Source of the DNA: an uncultured virus (IMG/VR IMGVR_UViG_3300042886_000689)
Taxonomy: Duplodnaviria; Heunggongvirae; Uroviricota; Caudoviricetes
Direction: 5' to 3' (one strand)
IMG/VR virus record: IMGVR_UViG_3300042886_000689
DNA length: 64,000 nucleotides
How positions within the stretch are numbered: position 1 is the stretch's first letter; every line of letters begins with the position of its first letter. Positions 10,799 to 59,456 of the stretch are shown one piece after another. The position numbers and the translations under genes were made by a program. A model generated the notes under the pieces. It was not told the DNA's origin and did not search any database. It was given only the letters and a program-made list of their open reading frames with translations.

Positions 10799-11149
10799 TT
10801 AGTCGTTTTCGTCAATAGCAACAAATTCTAGTGACTTAGAGAAAGCTTCAACCTTCTCATTAAATCTTATCACTTTTTGTTTTACATCATACTTACATCT
10901 TCTTCCGGCCATCTTGCAAAGCTTGAGGATTGCAATCTTCCATTCAGCAAAGTTTTCGGCTTTGGTGCAAATCATTCCGAATCTTTCCTTGTCCCATTCT
11001 TCTTTTTCAATATCTCTTGAGTTATCTGATAATGTTTTAAAGCAACTTGCTCCATACGGGCCAGCATCTCCGCACCATTCAGAGTCTTTAATTTTTACCT
11101 GACTACAACTTAATAGTAATAAGCTTATGAAGCCTATCTTTAAATTCAT
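10799..11149 (-). CDS. Cys-rich lipoprotein, possible o-spanin-like protein
   Basis: Lipobox-like LLLLSC after MNLKIGFIS; overlaps the upstream membrane/coiled-coil gene. Confidence 0.55.
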   Translation of the reverse strand: MNLKIGFISLLLLSCSQVKIKDSEWCGDAGPYGASCFKTLSDNSRDIEKEEWDKERFGMICTKAENFAEWKIAILKLCKMAGRRCKYDVKQKVIRFNEKVEAFSKSLEFVAIDEND

Positions 11150-11444
11150 CGCGAGCCTTTTGTAGTTCTTCATCTGTGCTTCCTTTCTTTATTACTTCAT
11201 CAAACTTTTCCACGGCTTCAGTATATTTTTTCTCTTGATACTCAGTCTTAAGTCCTATCATTAAAAGCTCGCCCTCTTCTTTTAATTCGTCGTAAAGAAC
11301 AGAGTAGAGTTTTTCAGCAATATAGATAAAAACAGGATTAACAACTGGAAAGCCTAGTAATGGAATCGAAATAATCACCTTGGCCATGGCCTTCTTGATC
11401 AGAAGGTCAAAGATCATTTTCTTGGCAATTTCATTTGGATTCAT
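11103..11444 (-). CDS. Membrane-associated coiled-coil protein, possible i-spanin-like protein
   Basis: Hydrophobic segment near the N-terminus and charged helical C-terminus; overlaps the lipoprotein gene. Confidence 0.45.
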   Translation of the reverse strand: MNPNEIAKKMIFDLLIKKAMAKVIISIPLLGFPVVNPVFIYIAEKLYSVLYDELKEEGELLMIGLKTEYQEKKYTEAVEKFDEVIKKGSTDEELQKARDEFKDRLHKLITIKL

Positions 11445-11733
11445 TTTCTTCCTGTTTCTTCGGGGCTTTGTAATTTGTCTTTATGATGGGATTTGATTTT
11501 TTATTGTGCTTGGAGTTTTTCTTACCTAGACCGCGCTCCTCTAAAAGCTCTCTTAATTTCTTCTCGTTTCTATGCTCAATTTTGATGTTGGCAATGTCTT
11601 TTAATTTGGCCATCAGTAGCTCCCTATCATCTCGTCTTTGAGATGCCTTCTTCTTGCGAAGAATACGTTTAAGAATAATCACCAAGGGAAAATAATCACA
11701 TTCCACTAGCAATAGACACAATATAATTCTCAT
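11431..11733 (-). CDS. Basic hypothetical protein with KSNP motif
   Basis: Lys/Arg-rich; HNKKSNPIIK. Confidence 0.55.
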   Translation of the reverse strand: MRIILCLLLVECDYFPLVIILKRILRKKKASQRRDDRELLMAKLKDIANIKIEHRNEKKLRELLEERGLGKKNSKHNKKSNPIIKTNYKAPKKQEENESK

Positions 11734-13345
11734 CTTGAGAACATAGCTTTAAGAATTCTTCTTCGGCATAATCAATTGCATCGGGTAAATTGGAGAAATA
11801 TTTAATGTTTTGCGTTTTGGTGCCTGTACCTGATTCAACAATGAATTGCTTTTTATCTTCCATGAGTTTCACGTTATAAAAAGGAAAGTCAGGAAGCTCT
11901 AGGTAGACGTAGTGACCAATAAGGGATTTATAAAGCTGCCACTTTACTTTGATTTTAAAATGCTCAACTCTTGCTACTCTATGCGACTTTGCAATCCTCA
12001 TAGCCGTTTGACTTGATTGCAATTCATATATTCTTCTATCAACCGATTCGGGGTCATAGTCATGTTGGGCATTTCTTGTCCTGTAATCATTGGCACGAAT
12101 TTCTAGGGCCTGAGAAAGGTTTAGTTTTCCACCATCTCGCGTACCATATTCTCTTGGCCCTTTGCGAGGGTTTGATTTAGTCTCAATAATGCTTAAGAAC
12201 CGATAGCGTCCCTTTTTAAGCTCCACGAACTTCTTATCCATTTTAATTAAACCATTCTCATGTTGTCTTTTCATCTTGTCTAAATAATCAATGTCACCAA
12301 TCTGGAAAATCGACCAATGTGATTCATCAATAGGGGTGAGAATTATCTTCTCTGGCTTGTTGTAACAGTATTGAGCTATGAGTTTTTTAATTTCATCGAG
12401 AGATGGAGCCGAAGCGAGTAGTTTTAATTCTTCTTTTTTCACTGGATTGTTCTTTGTTTGTGGCCTGAATGAGTAGCGTTTGGCCATATCTGTTTCAAAT
12501 TTCAACTTGTCTTCATCTAAATGGGAAAGTTCTTTATCTTCCATTAGCTCTTTCTTTGAAATTATACCGTCTACATAATCAAGGATTTTTTGTTTTGTAT
12601 TAGGAGATTTTACAAAAAGGCTTCCGCTATTTAGATACTTGTGCCTTTGAATTGGTAAAATGACCAGATTCATCAGCTTTGCTTTATCAATAACGATTGC
12701 TTTTACGGCATAATTCATCAAAAAAGCCACGCCCATTCTTGTGCGGCCACTAATGGTTTTATAAGTATCACCATCTTTTACAATCATTGGCATATAAAGG
12801 GGTTTGTTACTTCTAAAGCTTTTAGCAAGACCAAAAACATCTTTTGGTGGTGCCATATAGGCCAGCTTTGACTTTAAATCGTCTAGGTCATCAGCTACAT
12901 AATAATCAGGATTTCTTGGATTTAATTGATCTTTAGTTATTTTCTGAACACTTGAAATTTTTGGCAACATTTCAAACATAGTGTCGCGCCATTCTTGCTC
13001 ATCGGCTTTTTTGTTATAGGCACTACTAAAAAAGAAGACAATATTCTCAGAATCCCATTCGTGGTCAAATTCTTCTTTAGTTAATGGAATCCAAGCATTG
13101 TAGAATTGAGTAGGATTTGATTTTATTGTTTTATTCTTAGTAATCTGATTATAAACCTCAAGATAATAGGGTTTATACATAACTGGTTCCCATTCTTCTT
13201 CGTAGGCATTTTGAACGTCAACTTCTGAGAAAAAATCGTCAAAGCTCATTCCTCGAATTTCGGCAACTTCAAAGCTGGCCAAAACATCATTTTTGACCAA
13301 TGACAAAGTTTCTTTATTTAGATGCTTGATATATTTTTTCGCCAT
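11696..13345 (-). CDS. Multi-domain NP-linker protein with ParB/Srx-like domain
   Basis: KSNP, KNNP and KSNP linkers; PMIVKDGDTYKTISGRTRMGVA resembles the ParB-N core. Confidence 0.7.
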   Translation of the reverse strand: MAKKYIKHLNKETLSLVKNDVLASFEVAEIRGMSFDDFFSEVDVQNAYEEEWEPVMYKPYYLEVYNQITKNKTIKSNPTQFYNAWIPLTKEEFDHEWDSENIVFFFSSAYNKKADEQEWRDTMFEMLPKISSVQKITKDQLNPRNPDYYVADDLDDLKSKLAYMAPPKDVFGLAKSFRSNKPLYMPMIVKDGDTYKTISGRTRMGVAFLMNYAVKAIVIDKAKLMNLVILPIQRHKYLNSGSLFVKSPNTKQKILDYVDGIISKKELMEDKELSHLDEDKLKFETDMAKRYSFRPQTKNNPVKKEELKLLASAPSLDEIKKLIAQYCYNKPEKIILTPIDESHWSIFQIGDIDYLDKMKRQHENGLIKMDKKFVELKKGRYRFLSIIETKSNPRKGPREYGTRDGGKLNLSQALEIRANDYRTRNAQHDYDPESVDRRIYELQSSQTAMRIAKSHRVARVEHFKIKVKWQLYKSLIGHYVYLELPDFPFYNVKLMEDKKQFIVESGTGTKTQNIKYFSNLPDAIDYAEEEFLKLCSQDENYIVSIASGM

Positions 13346-13412
13346 GGGGTTTTCCTTATCCCATTAGTATATTCTTTGTTGTCGCTTTGCTCAACTCTGT
13401 TAGACTATTATT

Positions 13413-13928
13413 ATGAACACAGATGCTAATCCCCCACCGAATAGTAGAATCCTGCCATTTTTCATGGTGATCTTGGCCCTAACAGGAGCGTATTTTTTGA
13501 ATTTTCGTAAAGTACGCTCCTTTTCCAATCCGCGCAAGGGGGGATGGGGAAAAAAGAAAATACAAGCTTATAATGAGAAGACTGGAAGCCGCTTAAAACA
13601 TGGCGTAGACCGTGACCCCAAGACGCTTTCAGACTTAAAGAGGAAAGGCTCGTGGGCCACTAGGCACTATAAGAGAAAGAACGCAACAGGGCTGAATCAG
13701 GCCCGATTAAAGGATGAGAAAAGGGAATTAACACCTTTTTCTACTCAAGCAATCGCATGGGGCGAGAAGCCGCCAAAAACCCGAAAAGATCAGAAGAAAT
13801 TGGTAAAGCTCGGGGAAAAACTTTTAAAGACCTATCAGAAATATAAAGAAATGGGATTGAAACCGAATAGTGTACTTCCTGAATCGGTTAGAAACCAATT
13901 CAGGAAAGGATTAAGAAAGAAAGTGTAA
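13413..13928 (+). CDS. Basic protein with N-terminal TM helix and SNP motif
   Basis: ILPFFMVILALTGAYFLNF then RSFSNPRK; highly basic remainder. Confidence 0.7.
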   Translation: MNTDANPPPNSRILPFFMVILALTGAYFLNFRKVRSFSNPRKGGWGKKKIQAYNEKTGSRLKHGVDRDPKTLSDLKRKGSWATRHYKRKNATGLNQARLKDEKRELTPFSTQAIAWGEKPPKTRKDQKKLVKLGEKLLKTYQKYKEMGLKPNSVLPESVRNQFRKGLRKKV

Positions 13929-13941
13929 GTTATTGATGACG

Positions 13942-14014
13942 CAAGGAAGGTTATAATAAAAGAGTCAAGGATGACTTACTCATGGATGAGTGGCCCAAGG
14001 ACGGGCCTTATAAT
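13942..14014 (+). ncRNA. Putative CsrA/RsmA-binding multi-hairpin RNA element
   Basis: Three adjacent hairpins with ANGGA in the loop (agtca-AGGA-tgact, actca-TGGA-tgagt, ggccc-AAGGAC-gggcc) plus a fourth CAAGGA, intergenic between convergent genes. Confidence 0.6.
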
Positions 14015-14016
14015 TA

Positions 14017-14472
14017 TTAAATCTTTATTTTTCTAAAATCGTTAGTTTCGTAAAATTTTCTAAATTCTGACTTCAAATCGCTTGGAATATAATTCAATCC
14101 ATTTCCACTAAGTATGTCTTCTTTTATCTTGTACGTTAAATCGTCTGAATCTGGAATAACGAAGCAATGAAATGGCTCATTGGCATTTATGGCCGCAATG
14201 GCTCTATGCCTTCCTTCATGGCCAGTAACTTGGCCATCAAGCATTACTCGAAGATATGGAAATAAGTCGGAATCATCTTTGTGATGACTATCATATTCTT
14301 CAAAAGTGGCAACCTTCTCGCTCAGTCTTAAAATAAAGCTATCACTTGGAGTAGTTAATCGAAGAAAATCGGTGGGGCTGATTTCGATAATGCCAAGACC
14401 GTACCGATCTTGGGCATTTAGCTTGTGATATTTTGATATGTAATATGGATTTCTTCTTGTCCGATATTTCAT
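14017..14472 (-). CDS. ParB/Srx-like domain protein with N-terminal RRNP leader
   Basis: MKYRTRRNP; ISPTDFLRL; PYLRV...TGHEGRHRAIAA. Confidence 0.7.
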   Translation of the reverse strand: MKYRTRRNPYYISKYHKLNAQDRYGLGIIEISPTDFLRLTTPSDSFILRLSEKVATFEEYDSHHKDDSDLFPYLRVMLDGQVTGHEGRHRAIAAINANEPFHCFVIPDSDDLTYKIKEDILSGNGLNYIPSDLKSEFRKFYETNDFRKIKI

Positions 14473-16454
14473 TTTCTTCCGCGTTTTATTATTAATTTTC
14501 TGACTTCTCTCATTTCTTCAGGATATGACTGACCAGCAACATATCGCCACTTCCCATTGTCCTTGATTAGTCTATCGAAAATTCCAAAACGAGGGATAAG
14601 GCTTGAGTGTTTGGTCATTGCCTCTCTTACATCGTTATAAGTAGCCGCTCTACACTTATCGCAGATTAAAGAAACTAATTGATCAATATCGTCTTCTTTT
14701 AATTTCTCACGGTAATTGTTGAAGTTAATTTGCATATTAGAAGGATTTGATTTTCTTTTTGAGCGCGATCTTTTACTTGGCTCATCAGCTTCAGTGAGAT
14801 AAACATCAGTTCCCTCTAATTCGATAACGCCCATCAACTCACTGGCCATCCACTCAGCATACTCATCGGCATCAACACAGCGATTTTGATCATCGACATA
14901 GCAATCTTGATCACTATCATACTTGTAATCAGAGTCCTTAATATCAACACTTCCAAGAGAAATTTCAGCATCAAAGTATCGACCATCAATCTCGACCTTA
15001 TTTCTGACAAACGCGCTATATTCATAAACGGTATAAGACGACTTCTCAACTTCTACAGGGGTATTTTTTAGAATAGTCTGAACATTTTTAGGAAGATTTA
15101 AGAATGATGTGTAATATGTATCAGACTTGAAAGTGCTATGAAGTTTTACAGGATTCTTCTTTATCTTCTTCGGCATCTGAGAGCGATGAACAACTTTCGC
15201 TACAGCGAAACGTCCCCTATCTTCTTGGCGTGATTCTTTAAAGTCATCCATGGCATCTGATTTATATGTCCAGCGAGAGATAATTTTACCGTCCTTGTCC
15301 AATGAATAGTAATTGTTTCTGTCATCACGGTCTTCGCTGATTGGATTCCCCTTAGATACATGATCACTAGAAGCCCCAAGCATTGACTTACCCTTTTCCG
15401 TCAATCCAATAGTAATGTCTTTCGTGAACGTAAGTTTTGGATTTAGTACAGCAATTCCTGACTCAAGAAGATTTCGATAATGTTTTTTATTGTGAGCTAG
15501 GTTTCCTTTCAGCATCCATATCATGTGAGTTCCCATGCTTTGCCAGTCACAGATAAGCTCCATTTCAATTTCTGATAAGTGGATACCTTTTAGAATTGGA
15601 TTCCCCTTTCTACTCATTCCTGCCTTCTTAAGTGCAATCGCTACGGCTTGTTTCTGTGGTCGTCCCGAGTGCATAAGTTCAGAGATGTTCTGGCCGATAA
15701 CTTTACGAGATTTGCCTGAATGAAGGGGGTTTGATCGAAGCATTGCGTCTGTTATAACAGGTGGAAGGCTCCCTGATTTAAACATCTCTGGATTATCATA
15801 TTGTTCATCAAGGCTTTTATGAATGGAAAGAAACTCTCTGAATGTCTTAGGTGGTTCATAATCCATGTAGTCTTGGGCGGCCTCAGAGATGATCTCGCTC
15901 TTTTTGTCGTCAGGGTAAACTTTTTTGATAAGAACTCTGTAATCATTACCATTATACAAATCAAACATATCTTTTGTTAAAACAGGTGAGCCTTGTGCTT
16001 TTCTCATCATTCGACTAATCGGTTTCCCTAGGGTTTTTTCAGCATACCGAACAGCAATATCATGCAAATCTTCATTGCTTAATTTAATAGATGAAACTTG
16101 GACAATATAGACTTCAAAGAGGCCAACCGGCGATTTGAAAATATATTTTGAAATTCTATTTTTCTTTTTTGGGAGGGGGTTTGATTTCAGCTCAACATCT
16201 TCATTTTCTTCCCAGTCAACCAATTCACAACTGGCCCTGTCGCCATACACATCAACAACATAAGAAGCACACCCTTCGTCACAATAAAGAGAAAACTCTT
16301 TATTGTTCATGGCCACGGCATAGCAATGCCATTTACTGCCATCGACTTCAACTATAAAGTTTGCATCAACTTCACACGCCTTCTTGGTTGAAAGTGAATT
16401 TTCGACACATTCTTTAAGTGATTTAAGAGCAGAACCTTTTTTTATCGGCTTCAT
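14469..16454 (-). CDS. Multi-domain NP-linker polyprotein-like protein
   Basis: Six basic-x-NP linkers (KSNP, RSNP, KGNP, KGNP, KKNP, KSNP) separating unrelated segments of roughly 45-150 aa. Confidence 0.8.
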   Translation of the reverse strand: MKPIKKGSALKSLKECVENSLSTKKACEVDANFIVEVDGSKWHCYAVAMNNKEFSLYCDEGCASYVVDVYGDRASCELVDWEENEDVELKSNPLPKKKNRISKYIFKSPVGLFEVYIVQVSSIKLSNEDLHDIAVRYAEKTLGKPISRMMRKAQGSPVLTKDMFDLYNGNDYRVLIKKVYPDDKKSEIISEAAQDYMDYEPPKTFREFLSIHKSLDEQYDNPEMFKSGSLPPVITDAMLRSNPLHSGKSRKVIGQNISELMHSGRPQKQAVAIALKKAGMSRKGNPILKGIHLSEIEMELICDWQSMGTHMIWMLKGNLAHNKKHYRNLLESGIAVLNPKLTFTKDITIGLTEKGKSMLGASSDHVSKGNPISEDRDDRNNYYSLDKDGKIISRWTYKSDAMDDFKESRQEDRGRFAVAKVVHRSQMPKKIKKNPVKLHSTFKSDTYYTSFLNLPKNVQTILKNTPVEVEKSSYTVYEYSAFVRNKVEIDGRYFDAEISLGSVDIKDSDYKYDSDQDCYVDDQNRCVDADEYAEWMASELMGVIELEGTDVYLTEADEPSKRSRSKRKSNPSNMQINFNNYREKLKEDDIDQLVSLICDKCRAATYNDVREAMTKHSSLIPRFGIFDRLIKDNGKWRYVAGQSYPEEMREVRKLIIKRGRK

Positions 16455-16466
16455 ATATATTCCTTT

Positions 16467-16982
16467 TTAGTAATCCATTTCTTCTTCATCTCTGGTTTCA
16501 CCAATATACTCACCATCGTCATCAGTCTCGATATATCTAATTACCTTCCAGAGACAAACCAATAATGATAAACCTTGCTTTGAAAAAAATGAAGAAAGCC
16601 TATCCGCTCCCTCGATGGCCTCATCGCGATCACTAAATTGCAAAACTTGATAAGCATCAACGTCATGAATGGTTATTTCATAGTGTGTTTCGGCTTTGTG
16701 AGGATTATTTTTTCTTCTGGTGGGTTTTTTCTTTTTTGAAGCAGGATTAGAGCTACTTTTTCTAACGTCACGATTATAACAGCTACCATCTTCAAACATC
16801 ATATCATAACTGCCATCGGGTCTAATATAACAAGTGAAAAGAAAATCTCCATCATGTGTATAAAATTTTGTACCATCGTATTTATCAAAGTCAAAATCCC
16901 TGAGTGATTCTTTGATAAGGATTTCGGCTTCAAGCTTATTGTGAACTCTTTCTTTTATCATAATTACCTCTAGTATTTCCAA
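16467..16982 (-). CDS. Two-module NP-linker protein
   Basis: Central KSSSNPASKKKKPTRRKNNP linker; acidic C-terminal module. Confidence 0.7.
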   Translation of the reverse strand: MEILEVIMIKERVHNKLEAEILIKESLRDFDFDKYDGTKFYTHDGDFLFTCYIRPDGSYDMMFEDGSCYNRDVRKSSSNPASKKKKPTRRKNNPHKAETHYEITIHDVDAYQVLQFSDRDEAIEGADRLSSFFSKQGLSLLVCLWKVIRYIETDDDGEYIGETRDEEEMDY

Positions 16983-18250
16983 TCTCTTGTTCCGAAAACA
17001 TCACCCAATGAATAGCTTCCGTAATCAATCATGTTGATAAGTTCTCTAGCTTTCTTGACTTTAATTGTGTGATTTCCTTTCTCGACGTAATGGCCAGAAC
17101 CATTCATGCCATCATGGATATAAAGAACACAAGTCCCACCAATAGAGATTGACTCATCTCTCATAACGGCTTCATATAATTCTTCTGACTCATCAGTAAT
17201 GATTGCTATTCCTAGTGTTCCACCTTGAGAGTTTAAATACACTTCTTCACAGTCAGCCTTTGAAAAGCCATGCTTCATTCCAAGTTTGATAACCTTTTTA
17301 AGCTCGTTTTTTGCCTCTTTTCCAGCATTGTATGGCCCCGCAAGATAATTATCTTCCGAGTAATATTTCGAGCCCGACCTGTAACCTTCAAGCGAGTTTG
17401 GGTCAGTGACAAACAAAGGAGATGGGAATTTCCAGTTATAATTTGCAAGTTCTTCATACTTAAAACGCATTTCATCTCTTAGATCAAACGCTAATTCAGA
17501 ATCAAGGTCTTCCAGTTCTTCAAATTCCTCTTCGGCATTTTCCTTCACCCAGTAATTAGCGTTTTCTGATGCCATATCAGCTACACCATCGAGCAATTGA
17601 TAATTATCAGTTCCAACATCTTCGCCCGACTTGAGTGCATCTACATAATCTTCGATTTCAATTTCGCCATCTCTATAATCAAAAACGTCCCATGAATAAT
17701 GCTTATCAGAGTTGAATTCTTTGATAATACTATTGTAAAGCTCTTTAGCTCTTGATTCAGGGTTTCTTCTCATTCGCGGATTTGATTTTGTTTTCTTGCT
17801 ATAAAACTCAGCTTTTAATTTGCTTGCTTGTTCTAATTTTTTAATGGCCTCTACTCTAGGCAGAGACTCAGCTTGCTTTAGCAAATTATTATACCTTTTA
17901 ATGAAAGAATCTTTTGTCATTGAGCTTGGATTCTTCTTAATCTTTCTCTTTGCCCAAGTAATTCCATCTTTAAATTCCATATCGCCTAAATACCATTGAC
18001 CTTTAACCTGAGAAATTCTCGGAAAATCCATTCCAAGCATATATTCAAGTTGAGTAAGGGCATTATTAATAGCTGTTTTGGTTGTTGGAGTTTGCCAACC
18101 GCCTGAAGTAAGCCTGATGCTTCCCTTGTTCTTGTCGTAAACAACCACGTTTGTTTGGTGAAGTGTTACAATGATTTCATTGGGAGAATTAGTGATTCTA
18201 ATGTTTCCGAATTTTTTAGATTTTCCAATGTCAAATGATCTTGCGCTCAT
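16970..18250 (-). CDS. Multi-domain NP-linker protein with acidic C-terminal module
   Basis: N-terminal GGWQTPTTKTAINNAL module; KKNP, KSNP and RRNP linkers; Asp/Glu-rich C-terminus. Confidence 0.75.
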   Translation of the reverse strand: MSARSFDIGKSKKFGNIRITNSPNEIIVTLHQTNVVVYDKNKGSIRLTSGGWQTPTTKTAINNALTQLEYMLGMDFPRISQVKGQWYLGDMEFKDGITWAKRKIKKNPSSMTKDSFIKRYNNLLKQAESLPRVEAIKKLEQASKLKAEFYSKKTKSNPRMRRNPESRAKELYNSIIKEFNSDKHYSWDVFDYRDGEIEIEDYVDALKSGEDVGTDNYQLLDGVADMASENANYWVKENAEEEFEELEDLDSELAFDLRDEMRFKYEELANYNWKFPSPLFVTDPNSLEGYRSGSKYYSEDNYLAGPYNAGKEAKNELKKVIKLGMKHGFSKADCEEVYLNSQGGTLGIAIITDESEELYEAVMRDESISIGGTCVLYIHDGMNGSGHYVEKGNHTIKVKKARELINMIDYGSYSLGDVFGTRDWKY

Positions 18251-18264
18251 ATATTCTCCTTAAA

Positions 18265-19542
18265 TTATTCTTTCATTACAATTATGCCTAGGCCAGTTTC
18301 TTCATAGTTTCCATCGTAATGACTTAGAAAATGAGCTTCACCATCTTCTTGAACAGCGGCTTCGGCTGCTGATTCAATGTCAATGCTTACGAATGATGCT
18401 TTAAGGTAGTCTTCTTCTGAGTAGGCACCAATTTCATTCACGAAATAATTCATGGCATCTTTTTCAAGCTCGTTGTAAACATAATCATAATGATTATCAT
18501 ATAAAGCTTCTCTCATTTTGTCGTAATCTGGCTCGGCCACTTCGATATTATTTTCGGCCCAATCAAGAAATGCTTCTAGTCTTTCTTGTTCTCCTTTGTC
18601 GTGAGAATCGGGGCTTTTTTTAACAGCTTCAATATTCTTTTCAATTTCATAGATTAAGTCATCTTTATCATCAATCCTTCCAGAAGATGAAAGCTTGTAA
18701 TGCTCTGTGAATTGACCGCCATGCCATTCGGCTGCGATTTTCGTTGCATCGTCATCTATTTCTTTGCTTCCAATATTGTAATACACACTATAGTCATCAA
18801 TATACATTTTTTCATCAGCACCGCCTTCGTACAAGGCATCTCCAACTTCTTCTTCATATTTTTCAAGAACTTCGTCTTCGTCTAAATTGCTTGTGTAAGC
18901 CTCTGCTTCTTCCCCTGCGATAAGTCTCTTGTCGGTATCAGTAATATAGGTATGGTTTTGAAGCCATTCTTGATTAAATAATTCAGGCTCATCTTCGAGT
19001 GTCTGAGTGACTGAATCAATTGCAATATCATGAAATTCATCAAAGCTTGGAATAAGGTTAAATTCCTCACCATCAACCGTAACACTGTAGCAAGTACCAT
19101 AGCTTGAATATCTTCCATTATCGTTTAGAGATTCTTCGATTTCTTCAGCAATTTCTTTTTTTGCTTTGCTAGAGAATTTCTTATGGAAAAATTCAACAAG
19201 GTCTTTTTTAACCTTTGCTGAGTCCATATCAATTGGTTTTTTCACTGGGTTGCTCCTAGTTGGATTATTGAGTTTTGAATATTTGGCGATTTTTGCTTTT
19301 CTTGCTTGGGCGTATTCTTTTTTGAAATTCTTGAGAAACCATTTACTAAATTCTTGTTGATTTTTAAAGGCGGTATTGAATTTATTTTTTGCTGCTATGA
19401 ACTCGGGCATCGCTCTAACATGGTCAGGCGTTAATCCCATAGGCCCTCTACCGAATTTATCAAAATATCTTAATTCCTCAGAAGCCTCGTCAACGATTTC
19501 TGCCAAATTTTTCCTAGTCGCTTCTGCTTCTTGATAAGTCAT
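18265..19542 (-). CDS. Multi-domain NP-linker protein; highly acidic, possibly ArdA/Ocr-like DNA mimic
   Basis: N-terminal GPMGLTPDHVR module, LNNPTRSNP linker, very acidic C-terminal region ending IDIESAAEAAVQEDGEAHFLSHYDGNYEE. Confidence 0.6.
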   Translation of the reverse strand: MTYQEAEATRKNLAEIVDEASEELRYFDKFGRGPMGLTPDHVRAMPEFIAAKNKFNTAFKNQQEFSKWFLKNFKKEYAQARKAKIAKYSKLNNPTRSNPVKKPIDMDSAKVKKDLVEFFHKKFSSKAKKEIAEEIEESLNDNGRYSSYGTCYSVTVDGEEFNLIPSFDEFHDIAIDSVTQTLEDEPELFNQEWLQNHTYITDTDKRLIAGEEAEAYTSNLDEDEVLEKYEEEVGDALYEGGADEKMYIDDYSVYYNIGSKEIDDDATKIAAEWHGGQFTEHYKLSSSGRIDDKDDLIYEIEKNIEAVKKSPDSHDKGEQERLEAFLDWAENNIEVAEPDYDKMREALYDNHYDYVYNELEKDAMNYFVNEIGAYSEEDYLKASFVSIDIESAAEAAVQEDGEAHFLSHYDGNYEETGLGIIVMKE

Positions 19543-19561
19543 AACTTTTCCCTTTCAAGAA

Positions 19562-19969
19562 TTATACCTTCGGAGTGGCCTGAGTGGTAACTTTTTGTAG
19601 TAATTTATCTTTATTTGTATAAAGTACATAAACTGCAAGGGCACCGGCACCAGCTAGGACTACTTTGCTTCTAAAAAGCTTCGTAACGTACCATAGTCCA
19701 AAAAGGGACAATATATTTTTTACCCTATCTTTAGTTACGTCTTTTAAGTACGGTGCTAGGCCCTGTTCTGAAATGAAGTCTTGAACTTCTTGACTAGACG
19801 CAAATTGTCCGGCCTTAGTGAGGGTGGTATCTACGGACGACTGTGCCATATTTGAAAATGTATTTATAAGTGAATTTTGCATTTGTTGAGCGGCATCTGT
19901 GGTTGATGCAGAGATGTTATTCATTACAACATTGCCGGTGCTTGTTACGTTTGCTTCTGGGGCATCCAT
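19562..19969 (-). CDS. Membrane protein
   Basis: Two hydrophobic segments near the C-terminus. Confidence 0.7.
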   Translation of the reverse strand: MDAPEANVTSTGNVVMNNISASTTDAAQQMQNSLINTFSNMAQSSVDTTLTKAGQFASSQEVQDFISEQGLAPYLKDVTKDRVKNILSLFGLWYVTKLFRSKVVLAGAGALAVYVLYTNKDKLLQKVTTQATPKV

Positions 19970-19970
19970 G

Positions 19971-20534
19971 TTATTTCTTCCTGTAAAAATACATTACTGT
20001 TAGTGAGCCGACCAAAAGAAACGAGATAAGCTTCATCTGGTAGGCCTGTCTTTCCTTCGTAACTCTTTCGTATTCCAAAATTTGTGCTGTATCGTCTACG
20101 GCACCCATGCCCTTTCTTCGGGCAAGAACATATCGAGTATAAAGGTTTTTAATTCTTTGAACTGGTGATGATTGCATCTGGCCAGCCTTTAGTTTTTCTG
20201 GTTTTTTTAGCTCAGGAATACTATCAATAAAATACTGCCAAGGAATTTCGATACCTGATGGCACTACATTTAAAAAGTCTGCTATTTGGGTATTCCGTTC
20301 TTCTAGGGTATATGGAATATTTGGATTTGATTCTCGGGTAGGATAAAGGAGAGTGACAAATTTTCTAGCAAGCGGATTTGAGAAGTTCTTCATATTCCCA
20401 GAAGCAGTTTTAGCCGCTCTGGCAGGAATCTTTTTAATGATTTTTGCCACATTAGGCCTAAGGCCCGTAACTTCTACAGCAAAGTTCCCTTCTGTGTAGA
20501 TTTCTGGTCTTGGAAAAACAGTCATTTTAGTCAT
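19971..20534 (-). CDS. Tail-anchored membrane protein with SNP motifs
   Basis: FSNP, ESNP, KGMGA; C-terminal TM followed by RKK. Confidence 0.7.
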   Translation of the reverse strand: MTKMTVFPRPEIYTEGNFAVEVTGLRPNVAKIIKKIPARAAKTASGNMKNFSNPLARKFVTLLYPTRESNPNIPYTLEERNTQIADFLNVVPSGIEIPWQYFIDSIPELKKPEKLKAGQMQSSPVQRIKNLYTRYVLARRKGMGAVDDTAQILEYERVTKERQAYQMKLISFLLVGSLTVMYFYRKK

Positions 20535-20543
20535 ATACGCCTC

Positions 20544-20726
20544 TTAGTCATCGAAAATTGGGTTAAATTCATCGTGGTTCTCATCGTCGTCAATTTCTTT
20601 GATTTTACCCTTACCTGAAATCAGAGTGTAAAGGAGAACACCCGACAAAAGAACACTGACAACTTGAAGATATAATTGATAGCGTTGAATTTTATACTTT
20701 TCAATGTCTAAAACTGTGGGTTCCAC
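20544..20726 (-). CDS. Small single-pass membrane protein
   Basis: One TM helix, acidic tail. Confidence 0.6.
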   Translation of the reverse strand: MEPTVLDIEKYKIQRYQLYLQVVSVLLSGVLLYTLISGKGKIKEIDDDENHDEFNPIFDD

Positions 20727-21364
20727 TATGCCATCCTTGGTGCATTAGTCATGTACTGATATATAATATACCCTAAAACGCTGGCACCAACAACCGCCAC
20801 AACACCGATTCCCACGGTCGTTGCGTTGATTGAGCCAAAAAGATTAGCGGCGTATGACTTAAGAGATTCGACGCGCTTTAGCCATCCATTCAAAAACACC
20901 GATTGACTTGGGTTATTTGCCACAATTGTTTTGTAGGCATTAATAGATTCCGTGAGGTATTTTGGGATAAAGTCGGTATCTTTTACGCCATTCAGTGTTG
21001 CAATCGTTACAGGCCCTATTTTTCCGTCTTGGGCAAGCCCGAGGATTCTTTGCGCTTGTTTTACGGCGGCACTTACGCCACGATTTACGGCCTGATCAAA
21101 GATGATTGCTGCAATTGCATATTGCTTGATTTTGTCGCCTTGAATGGCATCCCAGTACATTGTTTTATAAATGGCAACGGCATTGCCCTTTGGCATATTT
21201 TTCATAACTGAATCGGCTTCAGCACTTGAGAGCTTTCTTCCGAGAAATTTTTCGTATGTTGCTTGAGTGATTCCGAAGTTTGTTCTTCCCCCAGTATCAA
21301 GAGGATTATTTACATAACCTCCCTCGTGCTCAAGGACTTTGTTAATTGCATCTAAATAATTCAT
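20726..21364 (-). CDS. GH108 lysozyme with peptidoglycan-binding domain and C-terminal TM anchor
   Basis: EGGYVNNPLDTGGRTNFGIT, IYKTMYW, FDQAVNRG, DGKIGPVT, FLNGWLKRV; C-terminal VGIGVVAVVGASVLGYIIY. Confidence 0.92.
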   Translation of the reverse strand: MNYLDAINKVLEHEGGYVNNPLDTGGRTNFGITQATYEKFLGRKLSSAEADSVMKNMPKGNAVAIYKTMYWDAIQGDKIKQYAIAAIIFDQAVNRGVSAAVKQAQRILGLAQDGKIGPVTIATLNGVKDTDFIPKYLTESINAYKTIVANNPSQSVFLNGWLKRVESLKSYAANLFGSINATTVGIGVVAVVGASVLGYIIYQYMTNAPRMA

Positions 21365-26258: not shown

Positions 26259-26548
26259 TAGAGGCCAGCTTTTATGAGTTTTGAGTAGTATTTCTTATCT
26301 TCGCTTAAGTGATCTAAAACAATCTCCCGAGCAATGCTTTTATCGTTCGTATGCTCCATCTCCACCTTGATTCCCATAGCAAACTCTTTAGCATTAACAT
26401 CTTTACGTGATAATCGGTCGCCTTTGCCGCCCACAAGGCGGTTTTGCGGAGTCTTGGCATCATAAGCAATCATCCAATAGCAAGCCGCATAGAAGGCGGT
26501 TAAAATGATTATTGACTTGGGCGAAAAATTGTATTTTGAGTAATCCAT
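26258..26548 (-). CDS. DUF5661-like protein with N-terminal TM helix
   Basis: GGKGD...MGIKVEMEHT...AREIVLDHLSEDKKYYSKL motif. Confidence 0.7.
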   Translation of the reverse strand: MDYSKYNFSPKSIIILTAFYAACYWMIAYDAKTPQNRLVGGKGDRLSRKDVNAKEFAMGIKVEMEHTNDKSIAREIVLDHLSEDKKYYSKLIKAGL

Positions 26549-41857: not shown

Positions 41858-41931
41858 TGAGCTATCGACAAGTGGTAAGTCAGCAGATTTTGATTCTGCG
41901 ATCATAGGTTCGACCCCTATTAGCTCAACCA
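41858..41931 (+). tRNA. tRNA-Gln (anticodon TTG)
   Basis: Acceptor tgagcta/tagctca, D-arm gac..gtc, anticodon arm gcaga-tt TTG at-tctgc, T-arm atagg-ttcgacc-cctat, encoded CCA. Confidence 0.95.
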
Positions 41932-43268: not shown

Positions 43269-43463
43269 ATGGATTTATTTAATATTCCGCTACCAATAGT
43301 CGAGTTTGCTTTTCACTTCCTTGCAGGAGTCCTTTACTTTGTATGCGGAGGAATTTTCGCTACTTCTGAAGACGATGATACTGTCATTATCTTCATGGGT
43401 TTATTAAGCCTCGCCATTGTTTTCAATATTATGGGCTATATGGTAAATTATGTCCCACGTTAA
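43269..43463 (+). CDS. Small membrane protein
   Basis: Two TM segments. Confidence 0.55.
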   Translation: MDLFNIPLPIVEFAFHFLAGVLYFVCGGIFATSEDDDTVIIFMGLLSLAIVFNIMGYMVNYVPR

Positions 43464-43872
43464 GCAAAAGCATGACTGGGATTGCGTTATTGCTTCAATA
43501 GCTATGATGGCAGGGGTTGAATACAATGACGTTTTAAAAACCTATATTAAGCTTTATCCAAAGCACCAGAAAAGCGGTCTTAACGATGATGAAATCTTTC
43601 ATATTCTATCCCAGTTCGGTATTCGTCCAAAAATAATTGATGCAGTTGTTAAAAACTTGTCAGGAATCATGTTTCTTCCATCTAAAAATGACAAGGGTGG
43701 AAGTCATGCAGTTTATTTTACAGGTGATGAGATATTTGACCCAAATTATAGGATTAAGGGCAAAAAATATTACGCCAAAAAGATTCCTAAGAAATTTCCT
43801 CACGGTACTCAGATGGTTGTAGACAAGAATAACCCAATGAGCAAAAATGTTTTAAGGAAACTTAAACATTAG
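43450..43872 (+). CDS. Peptidase C39-like (papain-fold) protein
   Basis: VKQKHDWDCVIASIAM (Q..C), SHAVYF (H), IFDP (D). Confidence 0.7.
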   Translation: MSHVKQKHDWDCVIASIAMMAGVEYNDVLKTYIKLYPKHQKSGLNDDEIFHILSQFGIRPKIIDAVVKNLSGIMFLPSKNDKGGSHAVYFTGDEIFDPNYRIKGKKYYAKKIPKKFPHGTQMVVDKNNPMSKNVLRKLKH

Positions 43873-43879
43873 GCCCTAG

Positions 43880-46800
43880 ATGAAAACCGAAACAGTTATC
43901 TACTTTATAGTGACATTCTTTTTCTCTTTGCTTTTAATGAGTAGTGCCTTTGAGGTTTGCTCTTTCCTTCCCCCTCCCCTTCATATTCCCCTTATGATTC
44001 TCGGGATTCTGGCCGGAATGATTCTTCCGGCAATGATTTTTGTATTTATTGATGAAATGATTGAAAAACATGATGATCGGAGCGAGAAATAATGAAAGCG
44101 ATTCACATTTTACAGGATACTCTTGCGGCCCTAATTGTAGTTTCCCTTTTTACATTTATAATAGCTTCTTTCTTTATCGGCTTTGCCGATGGATTGAGGA
44201 CTAATGACTGTAGGCCCAAGCGGCTTATTAGCTATATTAATATTCCTTGGCGATTGTCGTGCGAAATGAGCATGACTCGCAATTACATTACTGGAAAGAA
44301 ATAATGAACATCATAGAGGCAATTTCTTCGGGCTTTCCTTTTAAAAGGGAGCATTGGAGCGGTTTTTACACCAATGTCGGATATAGGCAGTTTGATGTTG
44401 ATGATATTCTTGCAAATGACTGGGTGATTGATACTGGGTTCCAAAACCAGAACCAACTTCCACTTCTTCCAACATTAGAGGTGCATTATGGGCTTTAGTT
44501 TATTGCTATTTTTGAAGGAACTTAAAGACAATGGCTTTATATATGACGACAGGGACATAGAATTGATCGCCAAAGACCTAAAACCCCTCGCCATTGAGAT
44601 TTTGATTAAAATGTATGACCGTATCAAGGCCAGCGAGAAAGATGGCCACAGCGAGCTTTAAAATGATTCTACACGACAGGTGCGGCCCCTTTGAGTTAAG
44701 GATTATCGAACTTGAGGGTGAGCTTAAGGATAAAGAAAAAATTATCAATGATTTGCAAAGTCATATAGAATATTTAGAGGGAAGGCTCGGAGCCGAAAAT
44801 AACATCAAGGAAGATTCAAATGGAAAAGATTATTAATATAGAGGATTACAAGGCTCAAGCAATTGCAATCCATGGCACTCAAAAGAAATACAATTTTAAC
44901 AGCCTTGATGAAATGATTGAGAAGCTTGAAGAGTTAGACCGTCAAGGCCTATTGATTGATGCTCTTAATGAAATAATAGCGGTTAATACAAGCGAGTTTT
45001 CACTTAAAGAGATTGCGAAAAAAGCCCTTGTTAAATTTAAAGTAAGGTAGAGGATATTATGGCAACCGTTTTAATTGAAATTGACCTACACGCTGTTTCG
45101 ATAGAGCATGGTAAAGAATTTGTCATAAGAGAAGAACTTGCCGACGACGAAGCCGAGATGGCCTTTGCTGGATTCTGTGTTGGCTTCTGCGAAGGCTACG
45201 CTCTGGCCTGTGAACATATATCTGAAAAATTAAAAGGCGATGGTAATCTCCAATGAAAAAAGAAATTGAAAAGCTTCGTAAGCAAATAGAGAAATTGAAA
45301 AACGATAACCAGTCAATGTGGGAGCTTCAACAGCAATCCGCAAAAGATTTAAAATCAAATCAGAAATCAAATAACACTTCAGCCGAACTACAGGGCGAAG
45401 TCCAAATGCTAAACAAGGCAATCATTCAGCATAAAAACAAAGAAAGTCAATTTGACGCAATAACTAAAGTTATAAATGATCAAAACGATTTACTTAAGAA
45501 GTGCGCTGCTTTCTATGCCGACGAATCAAACTGGAAAGTATTGGTTGATGACGATAGCGAATATCCTTTAATTTCAAGATCAGACGAAGAAGTAATCAAC
45601 GGTAGGGCCAGAGGCGGTAAACGCGCCCGAATGTGTCTTGATGAAATTGAGAAAATGTCAAAAGAATAGTTATGAAAGAAGAACGGGCAGGATATTTTAA
45701 AGTCTCTTATCGCCTTGATGAAAATAATACAATCTCAAATATAATAGTTTTTGGTAAATCAGAAGAAAGTGTTAGAAGACATTTAATTTCTATATATGAG
45801 ATAGTTGATATTATCAGTATTACCAAGGAGAATAAAAATGATATTCATGGAAAAAGCGACGAGTAATCTTTACGAACTTATAGTTTTGTCACTTGGCGAG
45901 CCAATTGCCTACTTAATGGACAACGCCGAGTTGTCCGGCTATCCAGTCGAGTACATAACTCTTTATGGAAAAGGAAACCCCGAGTCGTGTATGTACTCCG
46001 AGATGGGTGAGCGTTTTGAATTTCTAGGATTTCTATAATATGAGCAATAAATCAAAACAAGATGTTGTCTATGAAGAAGTCCAAGACCTTATCTCAAAAA
46101 TTAGTGAACTTCTCCATGGCTACGTTGAAAACGGCTCTAATTTTTCGCACAATATACGAATTATTACTGCGTCTAGGGCCATAAATGCTTTTTATGTTCA
46201 ATGGTTTTTAAACCTTGGCGAAACCATGAAAGAAAGAACAGATTTGATCACCGAACTTGACAAGATAATCGAAGCAAAGCAAAGTAAATTTGAGCAACAA
46301 CCCTAACATTGTTTATAAAACAAACCATGGTGGTCGTGTGTAAACATTGCTGATATACCAATGCGCTCGCGTATATCAAAATTAAAAGCGGAAGATTGGC
46401 CGAGCGGTTTAAGGCAGCAGTTTTGAAAACTGCCATAGGTTAACGCCTGTCTGGGGTTCGAATCCCTAATCTTCCGCCATTTTTGAATCAAATGAATAGA
46501 AAAAAGAAAAAGATAATAATTGAAAATTTCAAAAATAAAATGGCAACTCTGGGAATTAATCACTGAAAGTGGTGAAGTATTCTACTGTAAAACAAAGAAA
46601 GAATGTCTCATGGTCTTAGAAGAATATACTTGTCAAAACTCAAGGAGCCTCAAATGAAAGATGAAGACTCAGAAGAATTTAAAAACATGGTGGACATTGC
46701 ACGAAAAGACGTTGAGGAAATTGTTGATCACTTCAATTTAAAGATAGAGGATTACTTCAAAAGTGATTCTCCCGTAGAGAACAATCAGAAATTTCTTGTC

Positions 46801-47631: not shown

Positions 47632-49410
47632 ATGGCACGTACAAGTACGGAAACAAAATCCAAAAAAGCCCCATCTAGGGCCGTAATTGCAAAAATTGCG
47701 GAAGAAGCAGGGAAAAAAGCAGCTAAAAAAGTCGCTTCTAAAATTGCTCACGATGAAGCCAGTAAAACAGCTACAAGAGTCGCTACACGCGCAGCCCTTG
47801 ACCCTGACTACACTTCAAACACTGACATTGAAGAAGATGACCAAGATTACAATCCTCGTTATGGGCGCGTAAACTACCTCGAAACAGAAGAAGAAGAGGA
47901 AGAAGACGAAGACAATGACTCAGGCTTTACACTGAATCAGTATGGGCAACAATCAGGCAGCGATGACCTTTCAGACAATCCAAGATCAACCGATATTTTT
48001 AGTTACGGTACAGAGCTTTTAAATAAAGGCACTCCAATCCGTTTTCAAATTAAAAAGAATGGCCAGTTCTTAACCACAGTTCGTGAGCCATACTCAGAAG
48101 ATCGCCTTCAAAAAGATCACGGCGAAGGTCACTATGCAGTTATTCTTCGTAACGATGCCAAAGGCACATTCATTAAGCAGCAATCTTTTTCAGTTGCGGC
48201 ACCGACCGTTAAGCACGAGGAAATCGTTAAAGCTAAGACAGATGAGAAGCTAGACCGTATGTTTGAAACATTTGGTCAGATGCAAGAAAGAACACAAGAC
48301 ACCCAAGCACAATTGTTTGACCGCATAATGGAAGAACAAAGACGTAGAGAAGATGAAGAAAAAGAACGCCGAAGAGAGGAGAGAGACAGTATGAGACAAC
48401 AAGAACAACAAAACCAAAACCTACTTGCTACCGTTTTACAGGCTTCACTATCTAATAAAAAAGATGATGGTGGCGGTAACATGGCACTTCTTCAAATGAT
48501 GCAAGCTCAACAACAACAAACAGCTAATCTAATCATGGAATCAAATAAGAACTTCATGACTATGATTCAAGAAATGCGTAGAGACACTTCTACTATGATT
48601 GATAAAATGAGTGAATCTCAAAAAGATCAAGCTCGTGAGTTCAGAAATCAGATTGAAAAAATGGCAGGGTCGAAGAAAGAAGGCTTCGATGCGGTAGAAA
48701 TGTTCAAGATGCTAAATGATACTCGTGAATCAGGTATGCAATTTGGTCTTCAAATCAATGCCCTTGCAAAAGAATTGTCAGATGCAGGAGAAAGCGAAAA
48801 AGAACCAAAGGGTTTAACTGAAACAATTATTGAAAACCTTGGAAAACTTGCCCCATTGATGCTTGCCGCTGGCCAGAATCAAGGTCAAGCACCAGCACAA
48901 CAATACTTTGAGCCTCAACAACAACAATTGGTAAACGCACCAGCGGCTCCATCGTATAAAAAAGCAAGTGCTGCACCAGTTCGTCACGCCCAGCCACAAA
49001 CCGTAGTGGCCCAACCAGTGGCTCAACAAAATGCTCCACAAGCCCAAACAGATGCTCAAAGAGTAGCTAAAAAAGTTGTGGCAAAAGCTTCGGTTGCAAG
49101 AAGTTCGGAAACTGCTACAATAGACGCTAACACTTCTGTAAAAAAGACAGTTGTTGACATTTGTGCATCACTAATCGGTCATGCTCTTATGAACAATGTC
49201 TCTTCAGGAGATTTGGGCGATGCAACTATTAAGGCACTAGCTGAGAAAAACATCTCAACATCAAAAGCTTTAGAATTGTTATCCCTAGATGATATTTATC
49301 ACTTGAGCTTTACGGTTTACACCCTTCCAGATGTACCCGAGCTTCGAGTTTATCTGAAGGATTATCATGATTATCTCAAAGCCAAAGCATCCATTACGCA
49401 ATCTCGGTAA
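47632..49410 (+). CDS. Large acidic/coiled-coil protein, first gene of the structural module
   Basis: Basic AKK N-terminus, poly-E tract, GEGHY beta domain, Gln/Met-rich coiled coils. Confidence 0.8.
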   Translation: MARTSTETKSKKAPSRAVIAKIAEEAGKKAAKKVASKIAHDEASKTATRVATRAALDPDYTSNTDIEEDDQDYNPRYGRVNYLETEEEEEEDEDNDSGFTLNQYGQQSGSDDLSDNPRSTDIFSYGTELLNKGTPIRFQIKKNGQFLTTVREPYSEDRLQKDHGEGHYAVILRNDAKGTFIKQQSFSVAAPTVKHEEIVKAKTDEKLDRMFETFGQMQERTQDTQAQLFDRIMEEQRRREDEEKERRREERDSMRQQEQQNQNLLATVLQASLSNKKDDGGGNMALLQMMQAQQQQTANLIMESNKNFMTMIQEMRRDTSTMIDKMSESQKDQAREFRNQIEKMAGSKKEGFDAVEMFKMLNDTRESGMQFGLQINALAKELSDAGESEKEPKGLTETIIENLGKLAPLMLAAGQNQGQAPAQQYFEPQQQQLVNAPAAPSYKKASAAPVRHAQPQTVVAQPVAQQNAPQAQTDAQRVAKKVVAKASVARSSETATIDANTSVKKTVVDICASLIGHALMNNVSSGDLGDATIKALAEKNISTSKALELLSLDDIYHLSFTVYTLPDVPELRVYLKDYHDYLKAKASITQSR

Positions 49411-59400: not shown

Positions 59401-59456
59401 AAAACTTCTTCACTTTGAATAAAGCCTTGATTGGCTTTGAAAAAAGGGAACCTCGT

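Follow-up and report, generated by a model that had tools for sequence, protein, structure and literature searches.

Short consensus sequences mark the processing sites of several viral maturation proteases. In T4, the protease gp21 cuts after L/I-x-E (the capsid targeting sequences found in IPI-III and Alt), in phiKZ-like phages the site is S/A/G-x-E, and the adenovirus protease acts on pVII, pre-mu, pVI and pTP at (M/I/L)-x-G-x↓G, where the arrow marks the point of cleavage. Another chemistry is found in the asparagine peptide lyases, among them reovirus mu1 (Asn42-Pro43) and FlhB/YscU/EscU (N↓PTH). It depends strictly on Asn in the P1 position, and Pro in the P1' position closes the deamidation route that would otherwise compete. 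In phages and conjugative elements, multi-domain mosaics known as polyvalent proteins have been described, and their processing was ascribed to embedded zincin-like metallopeptidase (MPTase) domains (Iyer, Burroughs, Anand, de Souza and Aravind 2017, J Bacteriol, PMC5512222); in the retrieved portion of that article, to which all our comparisons with these proteins refer, the word "linker" does not occur. The present work concerns a stretch of 64,000 nucleotides from an uncultured virus of the Caudoviricetes (IMG/VR record IMGVR_UViG_3300042886_000689), hereafter the window, and in it an array of seven adjacent minus-strand open reading frames (ORFs) at positions 11431-19542. These genes encode "beads-on-a-string" proteins, whose joints are disordered, mostly basic linkers of 5-20 residues ending in [K/R]-x-Asn-Pro, which we call seams. 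We give about an even chance to the proposal that the seam is cut between Asn and Pro and that the products are virion cargo, with a role like that of the polyvalent proteins.

The array resembles the polyvalent proteins in its multi-domain mosaics, whose domains are shuffled among relatives, and in the fact that the hallmark domains DarA_C and ArdA accompany cassettes of the window in related proteins; travel with the DNA and processing into units may be a further idea in common. On the other hand, an embedded peptidase family was found in none of the seven array proteins with Pfam, PHROGs and NCBIfam, nor did these collections reveal in them any of the hallmark domains (DarA, ArdA/ArdC, DdrB-type ParB, MuF, ART, MPTase and others). 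The cassettes of the window are mostly tiny (43-150 amino acids, aa) and "ORFan-type", with a [K/R]-x-Asn-Pro seam at the joints, and they are found in a lysis cassette, whereas the polyvalent proteins have a portal-terminase or MuF neighbourhood. Since neither an embedded peptidase, nor hallmark domains in the window's own proteins, nor a neighbourhood of packaging genes was found, the array was not filed as polyvalent proteins. An earlier note, made from the sequence alone, had put it forward as the strongest candidate for an undescribed system. This stands for the seam motif, of which the retrieved portion of PMC5512222 makes no mention, but not for the multi-domain format, which is already in print there. 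At the level of titles and abstracts, no description of an Asn-Pro seam was found in the literature on phage Asn-Pro cleavage and polyproteins, on virion cleavage sites and on large bacterial viruses with a double jelly-roll and protein priming.

With the codes of the T4, phiKZ and adenovirus proteases the array shares a short consensus at the borders of leaders, core proteins and cargo. Those proteases trim basic DNA-condensing core proteins and leaders of about 10 residues at the same code, and the same is proposed here. However, basic-x-Asn↓Pro matches none of these codes, and the Cys-enzyme candidates of the window are not tied to the motif. In addition, the many unrelated modules per chain bring the array nearer to the polyproteins of eukaryotic viruses than to phage head proteins.

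The seam motif in the seven array genes

The array proteins and their strict [K/R]-x-N-P motifs, given from upstream to downstream, are the following:

18265-19542, minus strand: 425 aa in two modules, a helical one (aa 1-87) and, after a linker (aa 91-99), an acidic C-terminal domain of 326 aa (isoelectric point, pI, 4.2); one strict motif.
16970-18250, minus strand: 426 aa, consisting of a module at aa 14-92, KKNP, a helical piece of 50 aa, KSNP plus RRNP, and an acidic domain of 262 aa (pI 4.5); three strict motifs.
16467-16982, minus strand: 171 aa, two small acidic modules and between them a basic linker with SSNP and KNNP (aa 77-94); TTG start uncertain; one strict motif.
14469-16454, minus strand: 661 aa, seven cassettes and six seams; six strict motifs.
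14017-14472, minus strand: 151 aa, one module behind the 9-residue leader MKYRTRRNP (motif at 14446-14457); one strict motif.
11696-13345, minus strand: 549 aa, four cassettes, with seams KSNP (13112-13123), KNNP (12443-12454) and KSNP (12167-12178); three strict motifs.
11431-11733, minus strand: basic ORF of 100 aa with KSNP at aa 79-82 (11488-11499), 18 residues short of its end; one strict motif.

Altogether, the strict motif is present in 16 copies over the 2483 aa of the array, when within-protein shuffles of the seven genes gave 0.69 +/- 0.82 copies and never more than 5 in 5000 shuffles. The remaining 95 ORFs of the window (17,356 aa) contain 8 strict motifs, which amounts to an odds ratio of 14 in favour of the array (Fisher p 9.4e-10). 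The enrichment over the rest of the proteome was thus confirmed, and the counts of the earlier note (at least 16 strict motifs in the seven genes, six of them in the 661-aa protein) were all reproduced. The non-strict variants SSNP, LNNP, FSNP and ESNP and the leader MKYRTRRNP, which it had also listed, are present as well. Its remark that the motif is rare in the fibre and small early proteins agrees with our counts: there are no copies in the fibre-like proteins and two in the small plus-strand ORFs at 39.6-47.4 kilobases (kb). Of 22 Asn-Pro (NP) dipeptides in the seven genes, 18 stand in a linker, leader or tail context and four within modules. The placement of the motif in short basic linkers at module borders, or as a short N-terminal leader, is upheld.

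Several segments of the array proteins match small families of their own, and the seams lie at the borders of these matches. In the 425-aa protein, aa 1-86 match phrog_7560, a family of 86 residues, and the linker LNNP-T-RSNP follows directly (aa 91-99, window 19246-19272). In the 426-aa protein, the match to Kyano_Gp96/phrog_554 (aa 14-92) is followed by KKNP (aa 105-108, window 17927-17938), and KSNP plus RRNP come at aa 155-164 (window 17759-17788). The KNNP of the 171-aa protein is at 16701-16712. The six seams of the 661-aa protein are KSNP (16176-16187), RSNP (15726-15737), KGNP (15597-15608), KGNP (15342-15353), KKNP (15150-15161) and KSNP (14742-14753), and its aa 243-284, the cassette named F1, match phrog_2423 (a family of 52 residues) exactly between RSNP and KGNP. 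The description of the proteins as strings of unrelated modules, given in the earlier note, is supported. For the 151-aa protein there was no match in Pfam, PHROGs, NCBIfam or the PDB sequences. For the ORF at 11431-11733 neither a homologue nor a family match was found, and its start and its reality as a gene are uncertain. The 20 modules of the window gave no matches in NCBIfam.

AlphaFold models were obtained for the 425-aa protein (19 sequences) and the 549-aa protein (6 sequences). The former has a mean predicted local distance difference test (pLDDT) value of 76.4, with a confident helical part at aa 1-87 and confident domains at aa 102-240 and 290-425; LNNP-T-RSNP falls within the stretch that separates the first two of these, aa 88-101, where pLDDT is below 50. 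In the 549-aa model aa 305-387 are confident and are flanked on both sides by low-pLDDT segments, aa 292-304 with KNNP and aa 388-460 with KSNP, and the third seam falls in an unmodelled region. The coincidence of domain borders with motifs, which the earlier note had expected, therefore holds for the seams that could be judged (that of the 425-aa protein and two of three in the 549-aa protein). The MAFFT alignments A2 and A3 for the 661-aa protein stacked unlike small families and were not used.

As regards the nature of the modules, Foldseek against the PDB gave no match at E <=0.001 for the 425-aa and 549-aa models, and a wide VIA-align search with the 425-aa model returned generic helical hairpins only, aligned to aa 1-92 with Z <=8.1. 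A PDB sequence search with the profile of the 549-aa family (alignment A1) gave nothing meaningful. Among the effectors suggested in the earlier note, a ParB-type match was not found for genes 11696 and 14017 in Pfam, PHROGs, NCBIfam or the PDB sequences, and aa 43-233 of the 549-aa protein have pLDDT below 50. As to the "acidic DNA mimics", the domains are indeed acidic, with pI 4.2-4.5, but no fold match was obtained, in a search that barely reached the C-terminal domain of the 425-aa protein.

The low-pLDDT linkers bear on the possibility that the linker cleaves itself, the Asn side chain attacking its own carbonyl so that a succinimide forms and the Asn-Pro bond breaks without a protease. 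Such a reaction would account for the lack of an evident protease and for the same two residues standing before unrelated modules. It would also use the same Asn-Pro pair as the asparagine peptide lyases, invariant at the seams, and leave the same new N-terminal Pro. Nevertheless, the known Asn lyases have single sites in folded self-processing domains and hold the scissile Asn in a folded pocket, whereas the seams are repeated and lie in disordered linkers with variable neighbours. There is no NPTH-like extension, since the residues after NP vary (S, T, I, R, V), and uncatalysed Asn-Pro cleavage in peptides takes weeks to months. We consider self-cleavage improbable.

Cassette shuffling and the residues at the junctions

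A HMMER search with the 661-aa protein returned 568 matches and relatives for its cassettes at aa 8-91, 243-284, 368-433, 436-555 and 575-657. For three or four of these five, many free-standing homologues of similar size exist, starting at residues 1-4; the cassette at aa 368-433 was found only within multi-module proteins. Judged by their sequences, the beads are ordinary small viral proteins that exist free-standing elsewhere. When 170 proteins were cut at basic-NP and the pieces were clustered, 17 cassette families were obtained, which recur in differing orders and with differing partners. Examples of these orders are:

Window gene 14469: F4, u, F1, F14, F8, F3, F2.
P0015: F13, F14, F1, F8, u; the third and fourth cassettes of the window protein stand in swapped order.
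P0016: F10, u, u, F1, F2.
P0018: u, F3, F15.
P0059: F1, F15.
P0147: u, F2, F17, F11, u.
P0014: F3 is present twice.

Among the best 150 matches, 26 are of 200 aa or more, and 19 of these 26 carry 1-6 strict motifs. Internal BLAST alignments started near an NP in 57 of 423 cases, against a mean of 22 (maximum 52) for randomly placed sites, and ended near one in 142 of 462 cases, against a mean of 54 (maximum 110).

The same behaviour was observed in other families. Relatives P0006-8 of the 549-aa protein begin with M[S/A/P]QFY precisely at the position of KSNP-TQFY in the window, and in P0009 and P0010 the upstream cassette of this protein is joined to a different domain through KSNP or KRNP. 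In P0006 a further module, flanked by KSNP-RRLKNP and KPNP, matches DarA_C (31.2 bits, cut-off 27; 3.1e-7), and ArdA is found in relative P0024 (1.6e-13), each of the two beside shared cassettes. The acidic C-terminal domain of the 425-aa protein is free-standing in seven relatives, for example as MKKPIDM where the window has RSNP-VKKPIDM; in ten others it is fused through x-N-P behind about six N-terminal kinds (five module types and one short leader). Some fusions retain the former start Met a few residues past the seam. Module shuffling between motifs, anticipated in the earlier note, is thus found in the metagenomic relatives, where cassettes start, swap partners or take insertions at the seams.

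It should be mentioned that the DUF5661 domain occurs in both forms: the window encodes a free-standing 96-aa DUF5661 protein at 26261-26548 on the minus strand (1.8e-10), and in the metagenomic protein P0116 the same domain is flanked by NP (1.6e-12).

Related loci were searched for in viral contigs with the 661-aa and 592-aa proteins and with the alignments of the 549-aa family and of the core protein, and none was found. Of two scans of metagenome contigs, one gave nothing and the other a single fragment of 4.5 kb (L003). In isolated phages, tblastn with the 661-aa protein retrieved only the 40-residue F1 cassette, in 6 records, and with the 549-aa protein there was no match.

The junction could be followed best in F1, in which a Pro-Leu is conserved. 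Of 55 copies, 21 have the start codon directly before this Pro-Leu; 14 have an internal Met or Val there, which is probably the true start, two have Met-Ser, and the other 18 have Asn. In other words, wherever a start (or Met-Ser) is lacking at that position there is Asn, in 18 of 18 copies, and these 18 show at least 16 distinct upstream contexts, six of them non-basic (FTN, DGN, FNN, ADN, FDN, PDN). Asn-Pro is therefore interchangeable with Met-Pro in front of F1, as would be expected if the chain were opened between Asn and Pro. In the sequences compared, the invariant core of the seam is Asn-Pro and not the basic residue. A profile was drawn up from 262 distinct NP contexts in 202 proteins. 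In it, 63% of the residues at position -2 are K/R, as are 26-38% of those at the positions nearby, and acidic residues are depleted from -5 to -2. Position -1 is mainly S, K, N or R, and the residue after Pro (+1) is S, T, I, R or V, often followed by K/R. Taken from the other side, [K/R]-x-N is followed by Pro in 177 of 402 cases.

Small phage proteins of the phrog_2423 or DUF6496-like type, and the like module at the N-terminus of a DUF2213 head protein, are 56-61% identical to F1 (aa 243-284) and have Met-Pro-Leu where the window has Asn-Pro-Leu; relative P0131 passes the DUF6496 cut-off (26.9 bits against 24). Unlike the bead in a chain seen here, the F1-type module of isolated phages either forms a 44-aa protein on its own or opens a head protein, and has no Asn-Pro seam. 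In Enterobacter phage phiEap-2 (L002, 1498-1632) it stands alone as the 44-aa protein, whereas the "prohead core protein protease" (DUF2213) of Acinetobacter Obolenskvirus phages has it as first domain, as in Acinetobacter phage Brutus (L001, 2498-3829); both start with Met-Pro-Leu. These forms hint that the F1 module may be head-associated.

The residues around the junction can also be set against 2A-type "StopGo" translation, in which the ribosome would skip the peptide bond at Asn-Pro and the modules would be released in translation. 2A peptides have NPG↓P at their end and Pro heads the downstream product, as it would do here too. The consensus D-x-E-x-N-P-G-P, however, is absent; the five residues that most often follow NP do not include Gly, and those on the upstream side are basic, not acidic. 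Furthermore, 2A activity is not known outside eukaryotic ribosomes. This explanation seems to us barely credible.

A different view would be that the motif has no function in itself and is either the footprint of cassette recombination at a DNA junction or a favourable linker end, with Asn as N-cap and Pro in the first turn of a helix. Cassettes do travel with their linkers, Asn-Pro is common as a helix start, and helices are predicted after several seams (for example, past aa 78 in the 549-aa protein and past aa 164 in the 426-aa protein). Yet several other seams precede strands or unstructured starts, such as NP-VKLHSTF. At the DNA level, the Asn codons of the motif are AAT (11) and AAC (5) and the Pro codons are CCT (6), CCA (6), CCC (3) and CCG (1), which matches the background usage of the same genes, and the x residue is variable; the constraint is thus on the peptide and not on a DNA word. 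A degenerate DNA word was in fact counted 32 times, against 15.7, but it was rejected as a DNA-level signal, the excess being due only to the in-frame copies. With varied Asn and Pro codons and x residue there is no conserved DNA word that a recombination footprint would leave. In addition, in the six sequences of the 549-aa family (alignment A1, 59-84% identity) K298, N300, P301 and K390, N392, P393 are invariant, and N300/P301 and N392/P393, like N262/P263 of the core protein (alignment A4), remained so while the rest of the linker diverged; ordinary linkers are not conserved to this degree. We hold a functionless motif to be improbable, to the same degree as self-cleavage.

The motif in the Lys-rich core protein

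Outside the array, the motif stands out in one further gene:

57210-58625, plus strand: Lys/Ala-rich, histone-H1-like protein of 471 aa, encoded in the presumed morphogenesis block; its C-terminal domain is hydrophobic.

Four of the eight outside copies are in this protein, where 0.29 were expected and at most 3 were seen in 2000 shuffles. The other four (the leader of the DNA polymerase, the tail of the C39-like peptidase, 45805 and 23395) carry no weight because they are at chance level. The core protein has six NP sites at segment borders: the leader MDLQILYNNP and then KLNP, KKNP, ASNP, KKNP and KNNP. These positions are kept in 20 homologues (29-95% identity, contigs up to 72.8 kb). The leader M-D-L-Q-I-L-[Y/F]-[N/G]-N-P is kept in 18 of the 20, and in 19 of the 20 an NP stands directly before the C-terminal domain, N262 and P263 being invariant in A4. 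The family has one or two short basic peptides, each with x-N-P at its end, and up to three NP sites clustered between the two Lys-rich tracts; five homologues have P-R-N-P before an acidic tail. The recurrence of the motif in the histone-like core protein, pointed out in the earlier note, is therefore a conserved trait of the family. The Lys/Ala repeats themselves are free of NP, and the motif is found only at their borders, which is the layout of a trimmed protein rather than of a DNA-binding repeat.

This family is also where the strongest of the rivals has to be weighed, namely an uncut docking or tethering tag: the basic-x-Asn-Pro peptide would bind DNA, in the manner of an AT-hook or SPKK, or a capsid or membrane component, and whole proteins would be loaded or held on the genome. 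A tag would suit the basic flanks of the motif and the depletion of acidic residues around it, its presence in a protein that obviously binds DNA, the leaders and C-terminal tails that bear it without a second module, and the fact that no protease is linked to it. Against this, what is invariant is Asn-Pro and not the charge, as six of the 18 Asn cases of F1 and the core leader MDLQILYNNP are non-basic. AT-hook and SPKK elements have their core R-G-R-P or S-P-K-K within the binding tract, whereas x-N-P is missing from the Lys/Ala tracts that are expected to bind DNA and is placed only at their borders. Besides, loading needs no copy at each joint, and a tag leaves unexplained why a start codon or Asn (plus two Met-Ser) should stand before the Pro-Leu of F1. 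We regard the docking tag as unlikely, though it deserves more credit than the other alternatives.

Another short motif was observed around the core protein. Four small proteins of the presumed morphogenesis block (50037-50423, 50553-51083, 51289-51672 and 56173-56802) have an N-terminal M-x(2-8)-[G/N]-D-F-[G/Y], with sequences MKVKEYCSGDFGG, MSYTTGDFY, MRKYCMGDFGENGG and MMKYVKNDFGSMG, together with a C-terminal hydrophobic anchor. D-F-G recurs in the core-protein tail as well, without change across that family (D409 F410 G411 and D421 F422 G423 in A4). This arrangement suggests that the four may be membrane proteins, anchored by their tails, of a particle that has an internal membrane, and D-F-[G/Y] could perhaps be a second signal.

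Proposed processing and genome context

Coming back to cleavage of the seam, a cut between Asn and Pro would free each module with an N-terminal Pro, the same end that Met-Pro starts have after methionine removal, and this code would also serve to trim the Lys-rich core protein that binds DNA. The proteins would be made late, loaded into the particle together with the DNA and delivered at infection as a bundle of small early-acting or anti-restriction factors. The cutter would most likely be a protease that acts in trans and accepts Asn in the P1 and Pro in the P1' position, either viral (with the C39-like protein 43450 and the transglutaminase-like protein 49367 as candidates) or encoded outside the window; a cut by assisted Asn cyclisation would be less likely. 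We put forward a wider proposal more tentatively, and would sooner doubt it than accept it. According to it, large uncultured bacterial viruses of one lineage, which have a protein-primed polymerase, would use Asn↓Pro as a general cut code, through a dedicated asparagine-specific maturation activity. That activity would be a new protease specificity or assisted Asn cyclisation, and dozens of exchangeable mini-proteins, as well as peptides of the core protein, would be released in the particle or on entry.

Several observations weigh against cleavage and delivery. Seven of the 26 large matches have no strict motif, among them three of 755-1177 aa, which include the ArdA-bearing P0024. The most divergent relative of the 425-aa protein, P0202, is fused without NP (one case), and seams are lost or absent in P0185 (RSNQ, beside a kept LNNP) and in P0182 (RNAF). 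In the NP clusters of the core-protein family the sites are 2-5 residues apart, which is odd for cleavage. Beyond the array and the core protein the motif is at chance level (4 copies against 3.3 expected), and therefore it is not a genome-wide code in the window. None of the 20 modules of the window matches a known effector family in Pfam, PHROGs or NCBIfam, and the effector reading derives from two Pfam matches, DarA_C and ArdA, both in relatives. The 549-aa model is poor (mean pLDDT 52.5). The array is about 30 kb away from the presumed morphogenesis block, and no enzyme of Asn-Pro specificity was identified in the window. The C39-like and transglutaminase-like families are common in phages generally, and nothing links either candidate to the motif. 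Finally, X-Pro bonds are poor substrates for most proteases.

If the wider proposal were true, this would be a prokaryotic-virus counterpart of the polyprotein maturation of adenoviruses and asfarviruses with a different chemistry, and a plug-and-play format in which any small gene becomes virion cargo by gaining a seam. If the seams are cut, they would constitute a processing code that is both new and very simple, relying on a protease of new specificity or on a linker that cleaves itself and serving viruses with almost no proteins of known function. Such a code would explain how small "ORFan" accessory genes are converted into deliverable cargo, would mark gene ends and starts at the protein level, which would aid annotation, and would offer protein engineering a useful cleavable linker that is short, portable and defined by its sequence. 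Even if uncut, the seam is a marker that parses proteins into evolutionary units and helps to recognise the lineage in metagenomes.

The two candidates for the processing activity, listed as such only, and the remaining protein of the array region are:

43450-43872, plus strand: Peptidase_C39-like Cys peptidase of 140 aa (atlas feature score 0.96; template modelling (TM) score 0.69-0.73 to C39 clusters); processing candidate only.
49367-49960, plus strand: transglutaminase-core-like Cys-His-Asp protein of 197 aa in the morphogenesis block (atlas feature score 0.97-0.98; TM score 0.73-0.87 to Transglut_core clusters); processing candidate only.
13413-13928, plus strand: DUF6321 protein, inside the array on the opposite strand (PF19846, 4.9e-10, match from residue 41).

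The C39-like protein has a KNNP of its own, 11 residues from the C-terminus, which is not above chance. PDB sequence searches with both candidates gave nothing meaningful. The DUF6321 protein has a hydrophobic N-terminal stretch and then RKVRSFSNP, a non-strict variant seam, with N39-P40 just ahead of the match.

The neighbours of the array are an endolysin, transmembrane proteins and glycosyltransferases, not packaging or head genes. Lysis genes bracket it: the endolysin (20726-21364) and small holin-like transmembrane proteins (19562-20726) are upstream on the same strand. The position of the array within a lysis cassette suggests that it is expressed late. Promoter and terminator scans at 9.5-23 kb stayed at shuffle level (41 against 37 and 12 against 11, respectively). 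At the downstream end of the array there is an overlapping minus-strand pair, 10799-11173 and 11103-11444, of a transmembrane plus coiled-coil protein and one with a lipobox (LLLLSC) after an internal Met, which looks like an i-spanin/o-spanin pair.

The 425-aa protein occurs on 13 contigs, the longest of 71,774 base pairs, and the window is thus part of a genome of at least 71.8 kb. The window further encodes a PIF1/Dda-like helicase, a Dam methylase, collagen-like fibre proteins and two tRNAs; its glycosyltransferases number two, and its endolysin is of the GH108 type. In its 64 kb no portal, terminase or HK97-type capsid family was found.

Other genes of the window deserve mention. A protein-primed family-B DNA polymerase is encoded at 7254-9572 (PF03175, 4.2e-56), and just upstream of it a 424-aa ORF (5983-7257), with no family match, could be a candidate terminal protein. 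Two adjacent paralogues of about 215-236 aa (59415-60125 and 60135-60782; 30% identity over 117 aa, E 3e-8) sit in a row with 58756-59355 and 60793-61380; the four proteins, each of about 200 aa, have no family match and are candidate small capsid proteins. The 592-aa protein (47632-49410) has a basic Ala/Lys N-terminus, an acidic stretch and a long Gln/Glu-rich, coiled-coil-like middle, without a family match; its gene overlaps the start of the transglutaminase-like gene by 44 nucleotides, and it may be scaffold-like or tape-measure-like. The tRNAs, tRNA-Gln (TTG) at 41858-41931 and tRNA-Ser (TGA) at 46390-46479, are located among the small plus-strand ORFs.

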